From assembly GCF_003334335.1 (NCBI RefSeq), contig NZ_QOWQ01000004.1: 64,000 nt of DNA, one strand, 5' to 3'. A program made the position numbers and the translations under genes. The DNA is from Escherichia coli (GTDB taxonomy: Bacteria; Pseudomonadota; Gammaproteobacteria; Enterobacterales; Enterobacteriaceae). The first letter of the stretch is position 1. Each line of letters opens with the position of its first letter. Below, in pieces: positions 4,311 through 51,523 of the stretch. The notes beneath the pieces are model-generated. The model was not told the DNA's origin and searched no databases. It saw only the letters and a list, made by a program, of their open reading frames with translations.

Positions 4311-5966
4311 TCATGGATCCGGTGGCGCAAACCACGCTGATTTAAAATCGAACCAGCCGAGGGTATTCATGCGCAGGCCGCGCATACTGCGTTGCCCCTG
4401 AATGATCAGCCAGTGGTGCAATAATGGCACCATCGCTTTGCTGGCGACCAGTTGCTGGCACCAGTTCGCCAGATTCATCTCGCCATTGCGCCAGCGAGCA
4501 GCGTCGGCTTGCCAGTCAATGGGAATGCAATGTTGTAGCAGTGGCACTTCGCATAAATGTGCGAAAACAGAGAAGTCCAGCGGCAGGGTAAAGTTGGCGC
4601 TGTTTAGCCAGATATCACTTTCGATCTCTCCTGTATGCCACTGATCGTAGTCGATCTCTTTGATTTTCAGCGTGACCTGGTGACTTGCCAGAATCTGCTG
4701 CATGATCCCGGCAATCACCCGATGCTCACTGTGATCCTGATAAAAGGTTAGGGTGAGGCTTTCCAGGCCAGCCGGTTTTTCGCTCTTTATGGTGCGGGCA
4801 TGGTGCCAACGGGGGAGCAGTCCATAAGCCGGGAACCACAGTTGCTGGTACTGTTCCTCAGCGAAATAGACCAGATTAGTTGGAGAAAGCACATAGCTTA
4901 CCCAGTCCCTGACTTGCTGATTCGCCCCGCGATGGGTGCGGCTGTCGAACAGTAAATAGTAGCAACCTTCCTCCAGGCGGCTTTCAATCTCTTTTTCCTC
5001 GCCCTGTGGACCTTTTAGCATCAGCCCTCCGGCTGGCTCGTCGGCAATTTCCGGCAGAACCCAGACGTTAACTTCGTCGATTAATGCCCGGTAACCGAAG
5101 AAGTCATCGAATGCCTGAATTTTCAGTTGATTGGTGCTGTTGCGAATCACCGCATACGGACCGGTGCCGATGGGATGGCTGGCAAAGTTACTGAGGGTTT
5201 CCCATTCGCGCGGCAGGATCATCGCCGGAACTTGCCCCAGCAGTAACGGTAACCAGCGGTCCGGTTGCGTGAGATGGATATCCAGCGTCCAGGGCGTCGG
5301 CGACACAATGTCAGCAATATGCGAATAGAGCGGCAGCGTATTGATTCGTTTTAAAGAGGCGATCACATCGTCCATTTCCAGTTCACGACCATGGTGAAAA
5401 TGGACTCCTGGACGCAAAAAGAAACGCCAGTGAAGCGGTGAAATTTGCTGCCAGTGGTGGGCGATGTCTGCTTCCAGTTCCCCATTTTCCTCATTTATGC
5501 GCGTTAGCGAACTGAAGATTTGCCGGGCGATATGGGTTTCGGAACGGCGCAATGCGCTGCCAGGTAGCAGATTACGCAACGGACGATAGTAGAGCACGCG
5601 CAGGATGTGCCGCCCCTGGCGGAAGCTGCGGCCCAGATGAGAAACCAGCATTTGCCGCACAGTCGCTTTGTCGCCAACCAACTGCACCAGTTGATCGATA
5701 CGATCCTGCTCCAGCAGGTCTTCCGCCCGCTGTTGCTGAAGCGCCAGCCCGGTATAGAGGAATGTCAGACGCGAGCGTTTACCGCGCCCGACTTCCGCTT
5801 CCCACGTCAGCCAGCCGCGATCCTGCATGGTGTTGAGCAGGGTGCGCATATGACGACGCGAGCAGCTCAATAACGCTGCCAGTTCGTTGAGCGTTGTGTC
5901 CTGCGATTTACCCTCGCAGCATTGCCACAGGCGGATGAACTGTTGTTGCAGACGAGCAGATGGCAT
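4311..5966 (-). CDS. sgrR: transcriptional regulator SgrR (HTH plus solute-binding domain)
   Basis: ORF 4311..5987 trimmed to [10 protein letters not shown]; N-terminal HTH, C-terminal solute-binding-protein-like domain; divergent from sgrS. Confidence 0.9.
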
Positions 5967-9533: not shown

Positions 9534-12196
<2,663 letters not shown>

Positions 12197-12244
12197 GGTT
12201 TGGGTCCTTGTCTCTTTTAGAGCGCCTCGCTTCGGGCATAAAAA

Positions 12245-12275
12245 AACCCGCGCAATGGCGCGGGTTTTTTGTTTG
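12245..12275 (-). terminator. leu operon attenuator (intrinsic terminator)
   Basis: Minus strand AAACCCGCGCCATTGCGCGGGTTTTTTT: GC stem-loop plus T-run immediately downstream of leuL. Confidence 0.7.
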
Positions 12276-12288
12276 ACTGCGTGCTGGC

Positions 12289-12375
12289 TTAATGCTGGAT
12301 GCCGCTCACTCGTCTACCGCGCAAAGAAGATGCGTTTAGTAGTAGTAGACCGATAAAGCGAACGATGTGAGTCAT
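12289..12375 (-). CDS. leuL: leu operon leader peptide (28 aa, four consecutive Leu codons)
   Basis: Minus-strand [31 protein letters not shown] with CTA CTA CTA CTA run, followed by attenuator hairpin. Confidence 0.8.
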
Positions 12376-13034
12376 TAAATCAGCTCCAGATGAATGCGAT
12401 ATGCTTTTAGAGTTACTGGATACAAAAACGGATGTCAACCCTGACGCAATAAAAACGTCCCGCCAGCGTGAGTTCTGCATCCGTAAAATTAGCTAATTGT
12501 GCTGCGGTGGTTAAAGTAAGCGATATTAATTTCTGCTTAACTACCGACGCTTTTCATCGGTTGACATATTTCAGCATAAATTTTTGCATCTAATCAACGA
12601 GGAAAAAGGGGACAAAATGCACGCGTTGCAAAACCTATCCTGATGATTTGTATTGAATTATATGTTTTGCGATTTTTTTTGATATTGATTTGGTGAATAT
12701 TATTGATCAATTAATGTTAAGAATTAATGCATTAAATATATAAATTAATTATTAAATAAGCACATTTAATCCATTTTGTAGATGATTGAGTATTCGCGGT
12801 AGTTATGATTAGATTGTTTTCGCAACAAAAACATTATGGATTATTATGCTGTGGTAAATGACTCATTCCACGGCAATGGATTCTGTTTTTATCAGAACCC
12901 GTATCTTTATGTTTTCCGAATTTTACTCATTTTGCTTTTTCTTATTTTATATGCATGATAAATCATATTCTTCAGGATTATTTCTCTGCATTCCAATAAG
13001 GGAAAGGGAGTTAAGTGTGACAGTGGAGTTAAGT

Positions 13035-13979
13035 ATGCCAGAGGTACAAACAGATCATCCAGAGACGGCGGAGTTAAGCAAACCACAGCTACGCATGGTC
13101 GATCTCAACTTATTAACCGTTTTCGATGCCGTGATGCAGGAGCAAAACATTACTCGTGCCGCTCATGTTCTGGGAATGTCGCAACCTGCGGTCAGTAACG
13201 CTGTTGCACGCCTGAAGGTGATGTTTAATGACGAGCTTTTTGTTCGTTATGGCCGTGGTATTCAACCGACTGCTCGCGCATTTCAACTTTTTGGTTCAGT
13301 TCGTCAGGCATTGCAACTAGTACAAAATGAATTGCCTGGTTCAGGTTTTGAACCCGCGAGCAGTGAACGTGTATTTCATCTTTGTGTTTGCAGCCCGTTA
13401 GACAGCATTCTGACCTCGCAGATTTATAATCACATTGAGCAGATTGCGCCAAATATACATGTTATGTTCAAGTCTTCATTAAATCAGAACACTGAACATC
13501 AGCTGCGTTATCAGGAAACGGAGTTTGTGATTAGTTATGAAGACTTCCATCGTCCTGAATTTACCAGCGTACCATTATTTAAAGATGAAATGGTGCTGGT
13601 AGCCAGCAAAAATCATCCAACAATTAAGGGCCCGTTACTGAAACATGATGTTTATAACGAACAACATGCGGCGGTTTCGCTCGATCGTTTCGCGTCATTT
13701 AGTCAACCTTGGTATGACACGGTAGATAAGCAAGCCAGTATCGCGTATCAGGGCATGGCAATGATGAGCGTACTTAGCGTGGTGTCGCAAACGCATTTGG
13801 TCGCTATTGCGCCGCGTTGGCTGGCTGAAGAGTTCGCTGAATCCTTAGAATTACAGGTATTACCGCTGCCGTTAAAACAAAACAGCAGAACCTGTTATCT
13901 CTCCTGGCATGAAGCTGCCGGGCGCGATAAAGGCCATCAGTGGATGGAAGAGCAATTAGTCTCAATTTGCAAACGCTAA
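13035..13979 (+). CDS. leuO: LysR-family transcriptional regulator LeuO
   Basis: ORF 12858..13979 trimmed to [10 protein letters not shown]; LysR HTH ([38 protein letters not shown]). Confidence 0.9.
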
Positions 13980-14296
13980 CTGATTGCAGAATAGGTCAGA
14001 CATGAATGTCTGGTTTATTCTGCATTTTTTATTGAATGTAGAATTTTATTCTGAATGTGTGGGCTCTCTATTTTAGGATTAATTAAAAAAATAGAGAAAT
14101 TGCTGTAAGTTGTGGGATTCAGCCGATTTATTATCAATTTAATCCTCTGTAATGGAGGATTTTATCGTTTCTTTTCACCTTTCCTCCTGTTTATTCTTAT
14201 TACCCCGTGTTTATGTCTCTGGCTGCCAATTGCTTAAGCAAGATCGGACGGTTAATGTGTTTTACACATTTTTTCCGTCAAACAGTGAGGCAGGCC

Positions 14297-16021
14297 ATGG
14301 AGATGTTGTCTGGAGCCGAGATGGTCGTCCGATCGCTTATCGATCAGGGCGTTAAACAAGTATTCGGTTATCCCGGAGGCGCAGTCCTTGATATTTATGA
14401 TGCATTGCATACCGTGGGTGGTATTGATCATGTATTAGTTCGTCATGAGCAGGCGGCGGTGCATATGGCCGATGGCCTGGCGCGCGCGACCGGGGAAGTC
14501 GGCGTCGTGCTGGTAACGTCGGGTCCAGGGGCGACCAATGCGATTACTGGCATCGCCACCGCTTATATGGATTCCATTCCATTAGTTGTCCTTTCCGGGC
14601 AGGTAGCGACCTCGTTGATAGGTTACGATGCCTTTCAGGAGTGCGACATGGTGGGGATTTCGCGACCGGTGGTTAAACACAGTTTTCTGGTTAAGCAAAC
14701 GGAAGACATTCCGCAGGTGCTGAAAAAGGCTTTCTGGCTGGCGGCAAGTGGTCGCCCAGGACCAGTAGTCGTTGATTTACCGAAAGATATTCTTAATCCG
14801 GCGAACAAATTACCCTATGTCTGGCCGGAGTCGGTCAGTATGCGTTCTTACAATCCCACTACTACCGGACATAAAGGGCAAATTAAGCGTGCTCTGCAAA
14901 CGCTGGTAGCGGCAAAAAAACCGGTTGTCTACGTAGGCGGTGGGGCAATCACGGCGGGCTGCCATCAGCAGTTGAAAGAAACGGTGGAGGCGTTGAATCT
15001 GCCCGTTGTTTGCTCATTGATGGGGCTGGGGGCGTTTCCGGCAACGCATCGTCAGGCACTGGGCATGCTGGGAATGCACGGTACCTACGAAGCCAATATG
15101 ACGATGCATAACGCGGATGTGATTTTCGCCGTCGGGGTACGATTTGATGACCGAACGACGAACAATCTGGCAAAGTACTGCCCAAATGCCACTGTTCTGC
15201 ATATCGATATTGATCCTACTTCCATTTCTAAAACCGTGACTGCGGATATCCCGATTGTGGGGGATGCTCGCCAGGTCCTCGAACAAATGCTTGAACTCTT
15301 GTCGCAAGAATCCGCCCATCAACCACTGGATGAGATCCGCGACTGGTGGCAGCAAATTGAACAGTGGCGCGCTCGTCAGTGCCTGAAATATGACACTCAC
15401 AGTGAAAAGATTAAACCGCAGGCGGTGATCGAGACTCTTTGGCGGTTGACGAAGGGAGACGCTTACGTGACGTCCGATGTCGGGCAGCACCAGATGTTTG
15501 CTGCACTTTATTATCCATTCGACAAACCGCGTCGCTGGATCAATTCCGGTGGCCTCGGCACGATGGGTTTTGGTTTACCTGCGGCACTGGGCGTCAAAAT
15601 GGCGTTGCCAGAAGAAACCGTGGTTTGCGTCACTGGCGACGGCAGTATTCAGATGAACATCCAGGAACTGTCTACCGCGTTGCAATACGAGTTGCCCGTA
15701 CTGGTGGTGAATCTCAATAACCGCTATCTGGGGATGGTGAAGCAGTGGCAGGACATGATCTATTCCGGCCGTCATTCACAATCTTATATGCAATCGCTAC
15801 CCGATTTCGTCCGTCTGGCGGAAGCCTATGGGCATGTCGGGATCCAGATTTCTCATCCGCATGAGCTGGAAAGCAAACTTAGCGAGGCGCTGGAACAGGT
15901 GCGCAATAATCGCCTGGTGTTTGTTGATGTTACCGTCGATGGCAGCGAGCACGTCTACCCGATGCAGATTCGCGGGGGCGGAATGGATGAAATGTGGTTA
16001 AGCAAAACGGAGAGAACCTGA
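14297..16021 (+). CDS. ilvI: acetolactate synthase III large subunit
   Basis: ORF trimmed to [11 protein letters not shown]; TPP-binding motif GDGSIQMN; followed by ilvH. Confidence 0.95.
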
Positions 16022-16023
16022 TT

Positions 16024-16515
16024 ATGCGCCGGATATTATCAGTCTTACTCGAAAATGAATCAGGCGCGTTATCCCGCGTGATTGGCCTTTTTTCCCAGCG
16101 TGGCTACAACATTGAAAGCCTGACCGTTGCGCCAACCGACGATCCGACATTATCGCGTATGACCATCCAGACCGTGGGCGATGAAAAAGTACTTGAGCAG
16201 ATCGAAAAGCAATTACACAAACTGGTCGATGTCTTGCGCGTGAGTGAGTTGGGGCAGGGCGCGCATGTTGAGCGGGAAATCATGCTGGTGAAAATTCAGG
16301 CCAGCGGTTACGGGCGTGACGAAGTGAAACGTAATACGGAAATATTCCGTGGGCAAATTATCGATGTCACACCCTCGCTTTATACCGTTCAATTAGCAGG
16401 CACCAGCGGTAAGCTTGATGCATTTTTAGCATCGATTCGCGATGTGGCGAAAATTGTGGAGGTTGCTCGCTCTGGTGTGGTCGGACTTTCGCGCGGCGAT
16501 AAAATAATGCGTTGA
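16024..16515 (+). CDS. ilvH: acetolactate synthase III small (regulatory) subunit
   Basis: ORF trimmed to [19 protein letters not shown] (ACT domain). Confidence 0.95.
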
Positions 16516-16543
16516 GAATGATCTCAATGCGCAATTTACAGCC

Positions 16544-16568
16544 CAACATGTCACGTTGGGCTTTTTTT
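16544..16568 (+). terminator. intrinsic terminator after ilvIH
   Basis: CCCAACATGTCACGTTGGGC hairpin followed by TTTTTTT. Confidence 0.55.
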
Positions 16569-16694
16569 GCGAAATCAGTGGGAACCTGGAATAAAAGCAG
16601 TTGCCGCAGTTAATTTTCTGCGCTTAGATGTTAATGAATTTAACCCATACCAGTACAATGGCTATGGTTTTTACATTTTACGCAAGGGGCAATT

Positions 16695-17699
16695 GTGAAA
16701 CTGGATGAAATCGCTCGGCTGGCGGGAGTGTCGCGGACCACTGCAAGCTATGTTATTAACGGCAAAGCGAAGCAATACCGTGTGAGCGACAAAACCGTTG
16801 AAAAAGTCATGGCTGTGGTGCGTGAGCACAATTACCACCCGAACGCCGTGGCAGCTGGGCTTCGTGCTGGACGCACACGTTCTATTGGTCTTGTGATCCC
16901 CGATCTGGAGAACACCAGCTATACCCGCATCGCTAACTATCTTGAACGCCAGGCGCGGCAACGGGGTTATCAACTGCTGATTGCCTGCTCAGAAGATCAG
17001 CCAGACAACGAAATGCGGTGCATTGAGCACCTTTTACAGCGTCAGGTTGATGCCATTATTGTTTCGACGTCGTTGCCTCCTGAGCATCCTTTTTATCAAC
17101 GCTGGGCTAACGACCCGTTCCCGATTGTCGCGCTGGACCGCGCCCTCGATCGTGAACACTTCACCAGCGTGGTTGGTGCCGATCAGGATGATGCCGAAAT
17201 GCTGGCGGAAGAGTTACGTAAGTTTCCCGCCGAGACGGTGCTTTATCTTGGTGCGCTACCGGAGCTTTCTGTCAGCTTCCTGCGTGAACAAGGTTTCCGT
17301 ACTGCCTGGAAAGATGATCCGCGCGAAGTGCATTTCCTGTATGCCAACAGCTATGAGCGGGAGGCGGCTGCCCAGTTATTCGAAAAATGGCTGGAAACGC
17401 ATCCGATGCCGCAGGCGCTGTTCACAACGTCGTTTGCGTTGTTGCAAGGAGTGATGGATGTCACGCTGCGTCGCGACGGCAAACTGCCTTCTGACCTGGC
17501 AATTGCCACCTTTGGCGATAACGAACTGCTCGACTTCTTACAGTGTCCGGTGCTGGCAGTGGCTCAACGTCACCGCGATGTCGCAGAGCGTGTGCTGGAG
17601 ATTGTCCTGGCAAGCCTGGACGAACCGCGTAAGCCAAAACCTGGTTTAACGCGCATTAAACGTAATCTCTATCGCCGCGGCGTGCTCAGCCGTAGCTAA
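16695..17699 (+). CDS. cra: catabolite repressor/activator (LacI family)
   Basis: 334-aa ORF; [25 protein letters not shown]; starts at GTG in the sequence (ORF track shows it as M). Confidence 0.9.
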
Positions 17700-18219
17700 G
17701 CCGCGAACAAAAATACGCGCCAGGTGAATTTCCCTCTGGCGCGTAGAGTACGGGACTGGACATCAATATGCTTAAAGTAAATAAGACTATTCCTGACTAT
17801 TATTGATAAATGCTTTTAAACCCGCCCGTTAATTAACTCACCAGCTGAAATTCACAATAATTAAGTGATATCGACAGCGCGTTTTTGCATTATTTTGTTA
17901 CATGCGGCGATGAATTGCCGATTTAACAAACACTTTTCTTTGCTTTTGCGCAAACCCGCTGGCATCAAGCGCCACACAGACGTAACAAGGACTGTTAACC
18001 GGGGAAGATATGTCCTAAAATGCCGCTCGCGTCGCAAACTGACACTTTATATTTGCTGTGGAAAATAGTGAGTCATTTTAAAACGGTGATGACGATGAGG
18101 GATTTTTTCTTACAGCTATTCATAACGTTAATTTGCTTCGCACGTTGGACGTAAAATAAACAACGCTGATATTAGCCGTAAACATCGGGTTTTTTACCTC
18201 GGTATGCCTTGTGACTGGC

Positions 18220-48844: not shown

Positions 48845-50218
48845 TTAATGCGCTTTTACGGCTTTGGCGGTTTTCTCTTTAAACAGATAGCCGATACCTA
48901 ACACGATCAGCCATACCGGGATCAGGTATACCGAAATCGCCATTCCTGGGGTCATCAGCATAATCACCAGTACCGCCGCCATAAACAGCAGGCAGATCCA
49001 GTTACCCAGCGGATAAAGCAGAGCAGGGAAGCGAGTTACCACGCCTTGTTCCTGCTTGGCGCGACGGAATTTCATATGCGCCAGGCTAATCATCGCCCAG
49101 TTGATTACCAGTGCAGATACCACCAGCGCCATTAACAGTCCGAAAGCGGACTCTGGGGCAAGGTAGTTAATCAGTACGCACAACGCCGTTACCAGTGCAG
49201 ACACCAGAATGGTATTTACTGGTACACCACGTTTATCGACAGACGCCAGCGCTTTTGGCGCATTACCCTGTTGTGCCAGACCAAACAGCATACGGCTGTT
49301 GCAATATACGCAGCTGTTGTACACGGAGAGCGCCGCAGTCAGTACCACGATGTTCAGCGCATTCGCCACAAAGGTATCGCCTAACTCGTGGAAGATCAGC
49401 ACAAACGGACTGGTATCGGCGGTAACGCGGGTCCACGGCATCAGTGAGAGCAGAACGGCTAACGAACCAATATAGAAAATCAGGATGCGGTAGATAACCT
49501 GGTTAGTTGCTTTCGGTATACTTTGCTCCGGGTTATCAGCTTCTGCTGCGGTGATCCCCACCAGTTCCAGACCACCGAACGAGAACATGATAATCGCCAT
49601 CATCATCACCAGCCCGGTGAAGCCGTGCGGCAGGAAACCACCCTGATCCCACAGGTTGCTAACGGTCGCCTGCGGGCCGCCGTTGCCACTGAATAGCAGC
49701 CAGCCGCCGAAGATGATCATCGCTACCACCGCGATAACTTTGATAATGGCAAACCAGAACTCCATCTCGCCAAACACTTTAACGTTGGTCAGGTTGATGG
49801 CGTTAATCACCACAAAGAATACGGCGGCAGAAACCCAGGTGGGGATTTCCGGATACCAGAACTGAATGTATTTACCCACGGCAGTCAGCTCAGCCATGGC
49901 AACTAAAACGTACAGTACCCAGTAGTTCCAGCCAGAGGCGAAACCGGCAAAACTGCCCCAGTATTTATAAGCAAAGTGGCTAAAGGAGCCTGCGACAGGT
50001 TCTTCGACCACCATTTCACCCAGCTGACGCATGATCAGAAAGGCGATAAAACCAGCAATGGCGTAACCCAGGATAATCCCTGGCCCTGCGGACTGTATTA
50101 CGGAGGCGCTACCCAGGAATAACCCGGTCCCTATCGCGCCACCCAGCGCGATAAGCTGAATATGGCGGTTTTTAAGGCCGCGCTTTAGCTGCTCGCCGTG
50201 CTGTTGACCTTCCATCAT
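48845..50218 (-). CDS. aroP: aromatic amino acid permease (APC family)
   Basis: 457-aa ORF with 12 TM helices. Confidence 0.9.
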   Translation of the reverse strand: MMEGQQHGEQLKRGLKNRHIQLIALGGAIGTGLFLGSASVIQSAGPGIILGYAIAGFIAFLIMRQLGEMVVEEPVAGSFSHFAYKYWGSFAGFASGWNYWVLYVLVAMAELTAVGKYIQFWYPEIPTWVSAAVFFVVINAINLTNVKVFGEMEFWFAIIKVIAVVAMIIFGGWLLFSGNGGPQATVSNLWDQGGFLPHGFTGLVMMMAIIMFSFGGLELVGITAAEADNPEQSIPKATNQVIYRILIFYIGSLAVLLSLMPWTRVTADTSPFVLIFHELGDTFVANALNIVVLTAALSVYNSCVYCNSRMLFGLAQQGNAPKALASVDKRGVPVNTILVSALVTALCVLINYLAPESAFGLLMALVVSALVINWAMISLAHMKFRRAKQEQGVVTRFPALLYPLGNWICLLFMAAVLVIMLMTPGMAISVYLIPVWLIVLGIGYLFKEKTAKAVKAH

Positions 50219-50710
50219 GAAACCTCGTGCGGTGGTTGTTTTTTTGATCTACGCAGTGATGCGTGTGTAAGTTTGCAATTCCGTTTGTTGTATTAATTTG
50301 TTTACATCAAAGAAGTTTGAATTGTTACAAAAAGACTTCCGTCAGATCAAGAATAATGGTATGCGGCAGCGAATGCACCCGCTTTATGCATGGTTGAAGA
50401 TGAGTTGCTTAAAAAGAAACCGTTTGTAAAGCTCAGCCTCAACCCCTCTCAATATGTAGAATGAATTTAAATTCGTTTTAATTGAATTAAAAATCACAAA
50501 ATTGGTAAGTGAATCGGTTCAATTCGGATTTTTATAGTTTAATAATCGTTAAAAAACTCCTTTCCTACGTAAAGTCTACATTTGTGCATAGTTACAACTT
50601 TGAAACGTTATATATGTCAAGTTGTTAAAATGTGCACAGTTTCATGATTTCAATCAAAACCTGTATGGACATAAGGTGAATACTTTGTTACTTTAGCGTC
50701 ACAGACATGA

Positions 50711-50727
50711 AATTGGTAAGACCAATT
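50711..50727 (+). promoter_or_regulatory. PdhR operator-like palindrome
   Basis: AATTGGTAAGACCAATT about 30 bp upstream of the pdhR start; GntR-type inverted repeat. Confidence 0.55.
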
Positions 50728-50758
50728 GACTTCGGCAAGTGGCTTAAGACAGGAACTC

Positions 50759-51523
50759 ATGGCCTACAGCAAAATCCGCCAACCAAAACTCTCCGATGTG
50801 ATTGAGCAGCAACTGGAGTTTTTGATCCTCGAAGGCACTCTCCGCCCGGGCGAAAAACTCCCACCGGAACGCGAACTGGCAAAACAGTTTGACGTCTCCC
50901 GTCCCTCCTTGCGTGAGGCGATTCAACGTCTCGAAGCGAAGGGCTTGTTGCTTCGTCGCCAGGGTGGCGGCACTTTTGTCCAGAGCAGCCTATGGCAAAG
51001 CTTCAGCGATCCGCTGGTGGAGCTGCTCTCCGACCATCCTGAGTCACAGTATGACTTGCTCGAAACACGACACGCCCTGGAAGGTATCGCCGCTTATTAC
51101 GCCGCGCTGCGTAGTACCGATGAAGACAAGGAACGCATCCGTGAACTCCACCACGCCATAGAGCTGGCGCAGCAGTCTGGCGATCTGGACGCGGAATCAA
51201 ACGCCGTACTCCAGTATCAGATTGCCGTCACCGAAGCGGCCCACAATGTGGTTCTGCTTCATCTGCTAAGGTGTATGGAGCCGATGTTGGCCCAGAATGT
51301 CCGCCAGAACTTCGAATTGCTCTATTCGCGTCGCGAGATGCTGCCGCTGGTGAGTAGTCACCGCACCCGCATATTTGAAGCGATTATGGCCGGTAAGCCG
51401 GAAGAAGCGCGCGAAGCATCGCATCGCCATCTGGCCTTTATCGAAGAAATTTTGCTCGACAGAAGTCGTGAAGAGAGCCGCCGTGAGCGTTCTCTGCGTC
51501 GTCTGGAGCAACGAAAGAATTAG
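50759..51523 (+). CDS. pdhR: pyruvate dehydrogenase complex repressor (GntR family)
   Basis: ORF 50726..51523 trimmed to [18 protein letters not shown]; GntR HTH. Confidence 0.9.

Follow-up and report, generated by a model that had tools for sequence, protein, structure and literature searches.

The window analyzed here, a 64,000-nucleotide stretch of Escherichia coli contig NZ_QOWQ01000004.1, carries leuA, leuL, leuO (+), yabR (-), ilvI (+), ilvH and cra in the order given by RefSeq. The ilvIH operon encodes acetohydroxyacid synthase III and is the locus at which Lrp was first characterized. leuO ends at 13979 and the ilvI ATG begins at 14297, so that positions 13980 to 14296 make up the whole leuO-ilvI spacer (317 bp), identical at 317 of 317 positions to E. 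coli K-12 MG1655 (NC_000913.3, 85313-85629). The flanking 7.5 kb (window 10667-18167) are likewise 100% identical to NC_000913.3 82000-89500; a window coordinate thus equals the K-12 coordinate minus 71333. Of 5426 complete E. coli genomes, 5400 were matched by a 501-nt query spanning the spacer. The earlier note had placed an AT-rich leuO-ilvI spacer at exactly these coordinates, and the composition agrees, with a GC content of 35.6% against 52.6% for the whole window, a minimum of 0.30 at 14000-14199, and an AT-richness that just 1.1% of all 317-nt windows of the 64 kb attain. The remaining equally AT-rich windows belong to the leuL-leuO spacer and to 50217-50808, which we take from its K-12 coordinates (about 121550-122141) to be the aroP-pdhR spacer.

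The leuL-leuO spacer (12400-13116) is the AT-richest part of the window (GC 0.265-0.295) and adjoins the Leu leader RF00512 (12240-12389, minus strand, 145.8 bits). For leuO itself, the open reading frame list uses an upstream ATG at 12858 (373 aa) and the annotation a start at 13035 (314 aa). Between ilvH and cra, some E. coli RefSeq records hold a 28-aa "fruR/shl operon leader peptide" (16527-16613, plus strand; 5128-5214 in locus L001), which is not annotated in the K-12 record and corresponds to part of a 33-aa ORF at 16512..16613. The features of the leuO-ilvI spacer are collected in Table 1.

Table 1 Features of the leuO-ilvI spacer in window coordinates; negative positions count from the probable ilvIH transcription start.
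Feature	Coordinates	Strand	Sequence or position	Description
leuO intrinsic terminator (predicted)	13985..14030	+		hairpin 13985-14024, then T6 14025-14030
Lrp-like element 1	14009..14023		TCTGGTTTATTCTGC, centre ~14015-14018, ~-247 to -250	5 mismatches to both the 13-mer and the 15-mer
Strong Lrp site	14039..14053		palindrome centre 14046, ~-219	exact consensus, cross-species conservation
Block C	14087..14105		AAAAATnGAnnAnTnnCTG, ~-178 to -160	A-tract (14087-14092) and Lrp-like half-site (minus strand CAGCAATTT; CAGCAAWT)
Lrp-like element 3, weak candidate	14127..14146		TTTATTATCAATTTAATCCT, centre ~-125 to -134	TTTAT at 14127; 13-mer 14134-14146 with 4 mismatches
yabR (b4726)	14134..14178	-		14 aa, GTG start, AGGAGG Shine-Dalgarno 4 nt upstream; in RefSeq for K-12 and other strains
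Local hairpin	14141..14161	+	AATCCTCTGTAATGGAGGATT	terminator-like hit; poorly conserved outside Escherichia
67-aa ORF	14152..14355	+		passes through the promoter and enters ilvI out of frame; not annotated
Lrp-like element 4	14156..14168		AGGATTTTATCGT, centre ~-103	3 mismatches to AGAATTTTATTCT
Lrp-like element 5	14185..14197		TCCTGTTTATTCT, centre ~-74	holds third TTTATTCT copy; 10-mer conservation 0.79
Lrp-like element 6, weak candidate	14209..14218		GTTTATGTCT, ~-51	GTTTAT at 14209, TTTAT at 14210; tentative assignment
ilvIH core promoter	14230..14258	+		-35 TTGCTT 14230-14235, 17-nt spacer, -10 TAATGT 14253-14258
ilvI Shine-Dalgarno and start	14287..14299	+		GAGG 14287-14290, ATG 14297-14299; invariant GGAGGCAA..CATG in the alignment
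Conserved 10-mers, ranks 1-3				-35 region 14228-14237 (0.96); -10 region 14245-14254 (0.92); Shine-Dalgarno
Conserved 10-mers, ranks 4-6				palindrome right half 14044-14053; A-tract 14087-14096; GTTTATTCTG 14013-22
Conserved 10-mers, ranks 7-9				14189-98; 14159-68; 14097-14106
Best Lrp-like centres				mean mismatches 2.56 at 14046; 4.73 at 14160; 5.68 at 14098; 5.73 at 14018; 5.77 at 14191

Beginning 6 nt after the leuO stop, the spacer encodes a hairpin with a stem of 18 pairs (6 G-C), whose RNA has a minimum free energy of -22.4 kcal/mol (z=-5.4; none of 200 shuffles reached this stability). Among 75 Enterobacteriaceae sequences, compensatory double changes were seen in 9 of 12 consensus pairs. 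Together with the T-run behind it, this hairpin is the predicted intrinsic terminator of leuO. The local hairpin further downstream is probably incidental, and an Rfam search of the spacer returned nothing beyond a chance-level ncr952 hit (E=0.83).

Two forms of the E. coli Lrp consensus are given in PMC5554404, yAGhAwATTwTdCTr and AGAATwwwATTCT. The perfect palindrome AGAATTTTATTCT at 14040-14052 is an exact AGAATwwwATTCT and the sole exact AGAATWWWATTCT match in the 64 kb, and positions 14039-14053, compared with the 15-mer (YAGHAWATTWTDCTR), show a single mismatch. An exact consensus match is improbable by chance in composition-matched shuffles (P=0.0005). At a looser threshold, 15-mers with at most four mismatches were not enriched in the spacer over shuffles (5 observed, 5.26 expected). 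With the weak matches at chance level, multiple Lrp sites are thus not proven by the single sequence, in which one site can be called. Where the earlier note had interpreted the region as the Lrp-binding DNA upstream of ilvIH, and had looked to a lack of Lrp motif matches as the evidence against this, an exact match was found, in a sequence identical to that of K-12.

The repeated AATTTTATTCTGAATGT-like elements mentioned there are present as well. Measured against 2000 composition-matched, dinucleotide-preserving shuffles of the spacer itself, both TTTATTCT, found three times (14014, 14045 and 14190; shuffle mean 0.05, three copies in 0 of 2000 shuffles), and TTTAT, found seven times and always on the plus strand (shuffle mean 1.8, P=0.0005), are overrepresented, and the AATTTTATTCTGAATGT-like element forms a 16-nt direct repeat (14024-14039 and 14043-14058, 81% identity). 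The copies of TTTATTCTG at 14014 and 14045 are two of the four in the 64 kb (0.36 expected in 64 kb), and GAATGT occurs three times in the spacer. The TTTAT positions showed no significant 10.5-bp or 31-bp phasing; on reading the sequence, a G precedes six of the seven copies within 1-4 nt.

These repeats could also be seen as parts of RNA hairpins, that is of terminators, instead of protein sites. This holds for the first of them, the TTTATTCTG copy at 14014-14022, which serves as 3' arm in the hairpin of the leuO terminator, with its compensatory changes in 9 of 12 pairs and z of -5.4, and whose conservation is thus due at least partly to terminator RNA pairing and not necessarily to Lrp; the terminator-like hairpin at 14141-14161 would be a second case. 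However, of the three TTTATTCT copies, a conserved hairpin accounts for just one. At 14045, the copy makes up one half of a DNA palindrome whose 3-nt centre is too small for an RNA hairpin to be stable, and it is an exact fit to the Lrp consensus. For the copy at 14190 there is no partner arm, and the hairpin at 14141-14161 is not conserved. As an account of the repeats in general, RNA structure is thus quite improbable; it is true for the first copy only, and even there a dual role would be compatible with it. The strongly conserved 3' arm of this terminator may double as Lrp site 1.

To compare the spacer across species, one genome per species was scanned, giving 80 enterobacterial leuO loci; leuO and ilvI were both found in 79, the remaining one being without downstream sequence, and ilvI follows leuO in all 79. 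The alignment comprised 77 Enterobacteriaceae spacers of 307-403 nt and excluded three longer ones (470-647 nt). In the latter, L021:3949-4444 (496 nt) and L043:3952-4598 (647 nt) have extra DNA between the leuO stop and the terminator, ERIC/REP-like by eye, with the terminator-to-promoter block intact, and in L068:3910-4379 (470 nt) the terminator-to-palindrome interval itself is about 65 nt longer. One locus, L075 (CACSKA010000010.1), labelled "Chryseobacterium sp. 18061", is a typical enterobacterial leuO-ilvI locus near-identical to L076 ("Citrobacter sp. 18056") and L067, and probably stems from a mislabelled or contaminated assembly.

Conservation in the spacer is block-wise, with peaks at the palindrome, at block C and at the promoter, and does not run along any ORF. 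When the mean number of mismatches to the 15-mer consensus was calculated position by position over 73 non-Escherichia species (background 8.39), the best-scoring Lrp-like centres coincided with the most conserved 10-mers. The strong site has at most four mismatches in 99% of these species. Element 4 is the second-best conserved Lrp-like position, with 52% of the species at four mismatches or fewer and the cross-species consensus gA..A.TtcaCCaT. Element 5 is likewise below background (5.77 against 8.39), and 59-60 nt separate its TTT[AG]T.. anchor from the -10 anchor. Element 1, which overlaps the terminator 3' arm, has a conservation of 0.85 in its GTTTATTCTG core and, in most loci, a distance of 235±1 nt to the -10 anchor. 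Conservation of element 3 is low to moderate and element 6 is poorly conserved. The individual weak Lrp-like sites are those that we infer from such comparisons of sequence; as a set, the cross-species averages give independent support to several Lrp-like elements at fixed positions.

The spacing of the region is rigid. Distances from the anchor motifs to the -10 anchor are near-invariant (235±1, 205±1, 162-163, 59-60 and 20-21 nt), and the block of about 240 bp from the terminator to the promoter is free of indels (±1 nt) over some 80 Enterobacteriaceae species, with the longer interval of L068 apart; in contrast, the 5' leader can measure anything between 27 and 107 nt. A cooperative Lrp assembly that bends the DNA would be expected to need such fixed positions, and wrapping may be the reason for them.

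The AT-richness and the repeats might instead mainly reflect binding of H-NS or another nucleoid protein, or intrinsic curvature, in an H-NS-silenced leuO neighbourhood in which Lrp sites would be secondary. The neighbouring leuL-leuO spacer is still more AT-rich (GC 0.27), PMC5025477 describes leuO as H-NS-silenced, the weak Lrp-consensus matches are not above chance, and the conserved A-tract at 14087-14092 could be a static bend. Set against this, the exact 13-bp palindrome is very improbable from composition alone (P=0.0005) and 99% of the examined species keep it as a specific sequence, conservation falls in blocks at fixed positions instead of following a general AT bias, and Lrp binding and activation are documented experimentally (PMC10127797 and PMC6640053). 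We thus regard nucleoid-protein binding or curvature as unlikely to be the main explanation. The two readings are not mutually exclusive, and H-NS or curvature may contribute. Levinthal and colleagues are said to have found, in 1994, that H-NS modulates the activation of ilvIH by Lrp.

Block C separates the upstream group of Lrp-like positions from the downstream group. Its two 10-mers rank fifth (0.87) and ninth (0.75), so that it is as conserved as the Lrp elements, and in 54 of 56 scored matches it lies 162-163 nt from the -10 anchor. It also holds the third-best position-averaged score against the Lrp consensus (5.68 mismatches, centre 14098, about -167). Lrp sites 1-6 presumably protect -260 to -190 and -150 to -40, and we take block C to lie in the gap between these two published protected regions; by the numbering that we assume for the footprints, element 1 is probably "site 1" and the strong palindrome probably "site 2". 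As a promoter, block C was rejected, with no acceptable -10/-35 pair in either orientation when read by eye. It is conceivable, and we put it forward as a rather doubtful suggestion, that block C is an undescribed and required part of the ilvIH activation complex, be it as a seventh contact for Lrp, as a fixed bend or as the site of another protein.

The putative ilvIH promoter is marked by a cross-species consensus, aATTGCC-TGCc....gAGCGGTTA.ggT, with its -35 and -10 anchors 20 nt apart in 67 of 96 tallied distances and 21 nt apart in 11. Each hexamer matches the consensus at 3 of 6 positions, which is why a simple promoter scan missed it and which fits an activator-dependent promoter. The single hit of that scan in the spacer, a minus-strand TAGAGA-16-TAAAAT over the palindrome, is at chance level (1 against 1.4 expected). 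Transcription would start at about 14264-14266, some 32 nt before the ATG, a position that we derive from the promoter sequence.

In E. coli, the -35 region at 14230-14241 is a perfect 12-bp palindrome, TTGCTTAAGCAA, and thus offers a TTGCTT hexamer on either strand. The palindrome is not kept in other genera, which carry ATTGCCTGCC, and no good minus-strand -10 was seen.

Downstream of the promoter, Escherichia, Salmonella and Citrobacter have an ilvI 5' leader of 27-43 nt, but in 51 of 79 loci it measures 74-107 nt. Among the genera with long leaders are Enterobacter, Klebsiella, Kosakonia, Kluyvera, Leclercia, Lelliottia, Phytobacter, Siccibacter and Atlantibacter (in L022-L081, for example L026:4232-4334 and L073:4246-4276); the window, with its E. 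coli leader at 14265-14296, lacks the additional sequence. The extra sequence of about 65 nt forms two stem-loops, the first variable in sequence yet self-complementary where read, the second with a core that hardly varies, CGGAAAT-GA-ATTCCG, and with covariation in its outer stem (GACGG/CCGTC, GACCG/CGGTC, GGCCG/CGGCC). Folding of the long leaders gave a mean z of -2.3, with 98% of the sequences below 0. Searches of the long leaders found no T-run after the stem-loops, no conserved leader ORF and no Rfam match. RNAalifold on a MAFFT alignment of them returned no consensus structure because of register shifts, and a rigid 31-nt structure template fits just 8 genuine hairpin-2 sequences from one clade. 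The stem-loops may constitute an undescribed 5'UTR element of ilvIH.

On the opposite strand, window positions 14134..14178 translate to the YabR peptide and correspond to K-12 85467-85511. The YabR product has been detected by chromosomal SPA tagging and immunoblotting (VanOrsdel 2018, PMC6001520). In two of three other Escherichia-clade genomes (L004 and L005) the GTG start is changed to GAG, and in other genera the frame is not kept, having stops or no start. Judging from these comparisons, yabR appears to be a young ORF limited to E. coli and the closest relative sampled; the loss of the start weakens the case for a conserved function, not that for expression in E. coli. The ORF sits inside the downstream group of Lrp-like elements, so that mutations testing the Lrp elements at about 14140-14168 would also alter YabR, and vice versa.

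On the plus strand, the frame of the 67-aa ORF gives an ORF starting at least 100 nt upstream of ilvI in just 2 of 79 loci, and its ATG lies upstream of the probable ilvIH transcription start. The 67-, 41- and 40-aa ORFs had no NCBIfam match, and their coding potential was rejected on this ground and, for the 67-aa ORF, for want of conservation. That ORF, which the earlier note had judged probably not coding and which is unannotated, is very probably non-coding. The wider idea that the spacer is mainly protein-coding, through yabR, these three ORFs or both, with peptide function behind its conservation, can draw on an annotated gene with a strong AGGAGG Shine-Dalgarno sequence and a tagged product that was detected. 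It is nevertheless highly improbable, given the GAG codon at the yabR start in two Escherichia-clade genomes and a frame broken or startless in other genera, the loss of the 67-aa frame in 77 of 79 loci, the three longer ORFs without NCBIfam match, conservation peaks at the palindrome, block C and the promoter, and a promoter scan that found no consensus-like minus-strand promoter upstream of yabR.

The reading that we favor, at a probability of roughly nine in ten, is that the spacer is the E. coli K-12 ilvIH upstream activating region with an Lrp site array, together with the leuO terminator and the ilvIH promoter. The present analysis shows that the DNA is identical to that of K-12, that the motif match is significant, how the terminator is built, and that the promoter is conserved and the spacing rigid. 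Lrp binding and activation, like the effect of leucine, are taken from the literature, and the parts that we infer are the assignment of single weak sites, the place where transcription starts and the explanation of the spacing by wrapping. Transcription of leuO would end at the intrinsic terminator at 13985-14030. Lrp would bind degenerate, AT-rich sites that are set in phase along some 210 bp, with binding probably nucleated by the perfect palindrome at 14040-14052 and extended to weaker TTTAT-containing sites, one flanking it at about 14015 and others downstream at about 14140, 14160, 14190 and 14215. Cooperative binding would bend or wrap the DNA and so activate the weak sigma-70 promoter TTGCTT-17-TAATGT, and leucine would lower Lrp occupancy and with it ilvIH expression.

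Published work on the locus is in line with this scheme. The region upstream of ilvIH was assigned six Lrp sites, and the Kd given is 8 nM (Wang & Calvo 1993, as quoted in PMC6640053). By ChIP-seq, Lrp occupies the DNA upstream of ilvIH, and this occupancy tracks ilvIH expression and is lowered by leucine, in a study that included RNAP ChIP too (PMC10127797). Leucine-free Lrp induces ilvIH, and a supercoiling "promoter relay" has been described from ilvIH to leuO to leuABCD (PMC4770239). The window holds the same DNA as the K-12 ilvIH region of the classical studies (Wang & Calvo 1993; Ricca 1989; Platko 1990; Marasco 1994), with no sequence difference; its palindrome equals the consensus derived from the K-12 sites, and Lrp activates there, with leucine relieving activation. 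The region is thus already known, textbook DNA, and the interpretation given in the earlier note is correct. A literature text search for the Lrp site sequence gave no match, and in the accessible literature, to which the primary footprint papers do not belong, we found no discussion of the overlap between the terminator and element 1, of yabR or of block C in this context.

The leuO-ilvI arrangement is common to the window and to Salmonella, for which ilvIH Lrp sites have been described (Wang, Sacco, Ricca, Lago, De Felice, Calvo 1993, Mol Microbiol; cited in PMC8707732). The Salmonella enterica subsp. diarizonae and arizonae spacers (L006 and L007; 320-321 bp) hold the palindrome core, block C, the -35 and the -10 at the E. 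coli distances; they differ from the window in sequence that has diverged between the conserved blocks and in an ilvI start that is GTG instead of ATG. At pap, gltBDF, artP and lrp, Lrp likewise binds several degenerate AT-rich sites cooperatively, with a motif of the G-N2-3-TTT type (PMC6640053); unlike these, ilvIH has an array that reaches to about -250, a perfect consensus palindrome and activation that leucine reverses. YabR is one of the epitope-tagged small proteins of VanOrsdel et al. 2018, with identical coordinates and peptide; its ORF is not conserved beyond E. coli and the closest relative sampled and overlaps regulatory DNA.

Beyond what the earlier note contained, the analysis adds yabR, block C, the overlap of the first element with the terminator, a conserved promoter and an architecture free of indels; to the K-12 studies it adds the conservation across genera. 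The spacer also serves as a calibration case, in which the consensus finds one known Lrp site and the rest are seen through cross-species conservation and rigid spacing. It also illustrates how dense the use of a bacterial spacer can be, since 317 bp accommodate one arm of a terminator, sites for a regulator, a small ORF that looks young and a promoter, and if the terminator arm does double as Lrp site 1, leuO read-through would be linked to the activation of ilvIH.
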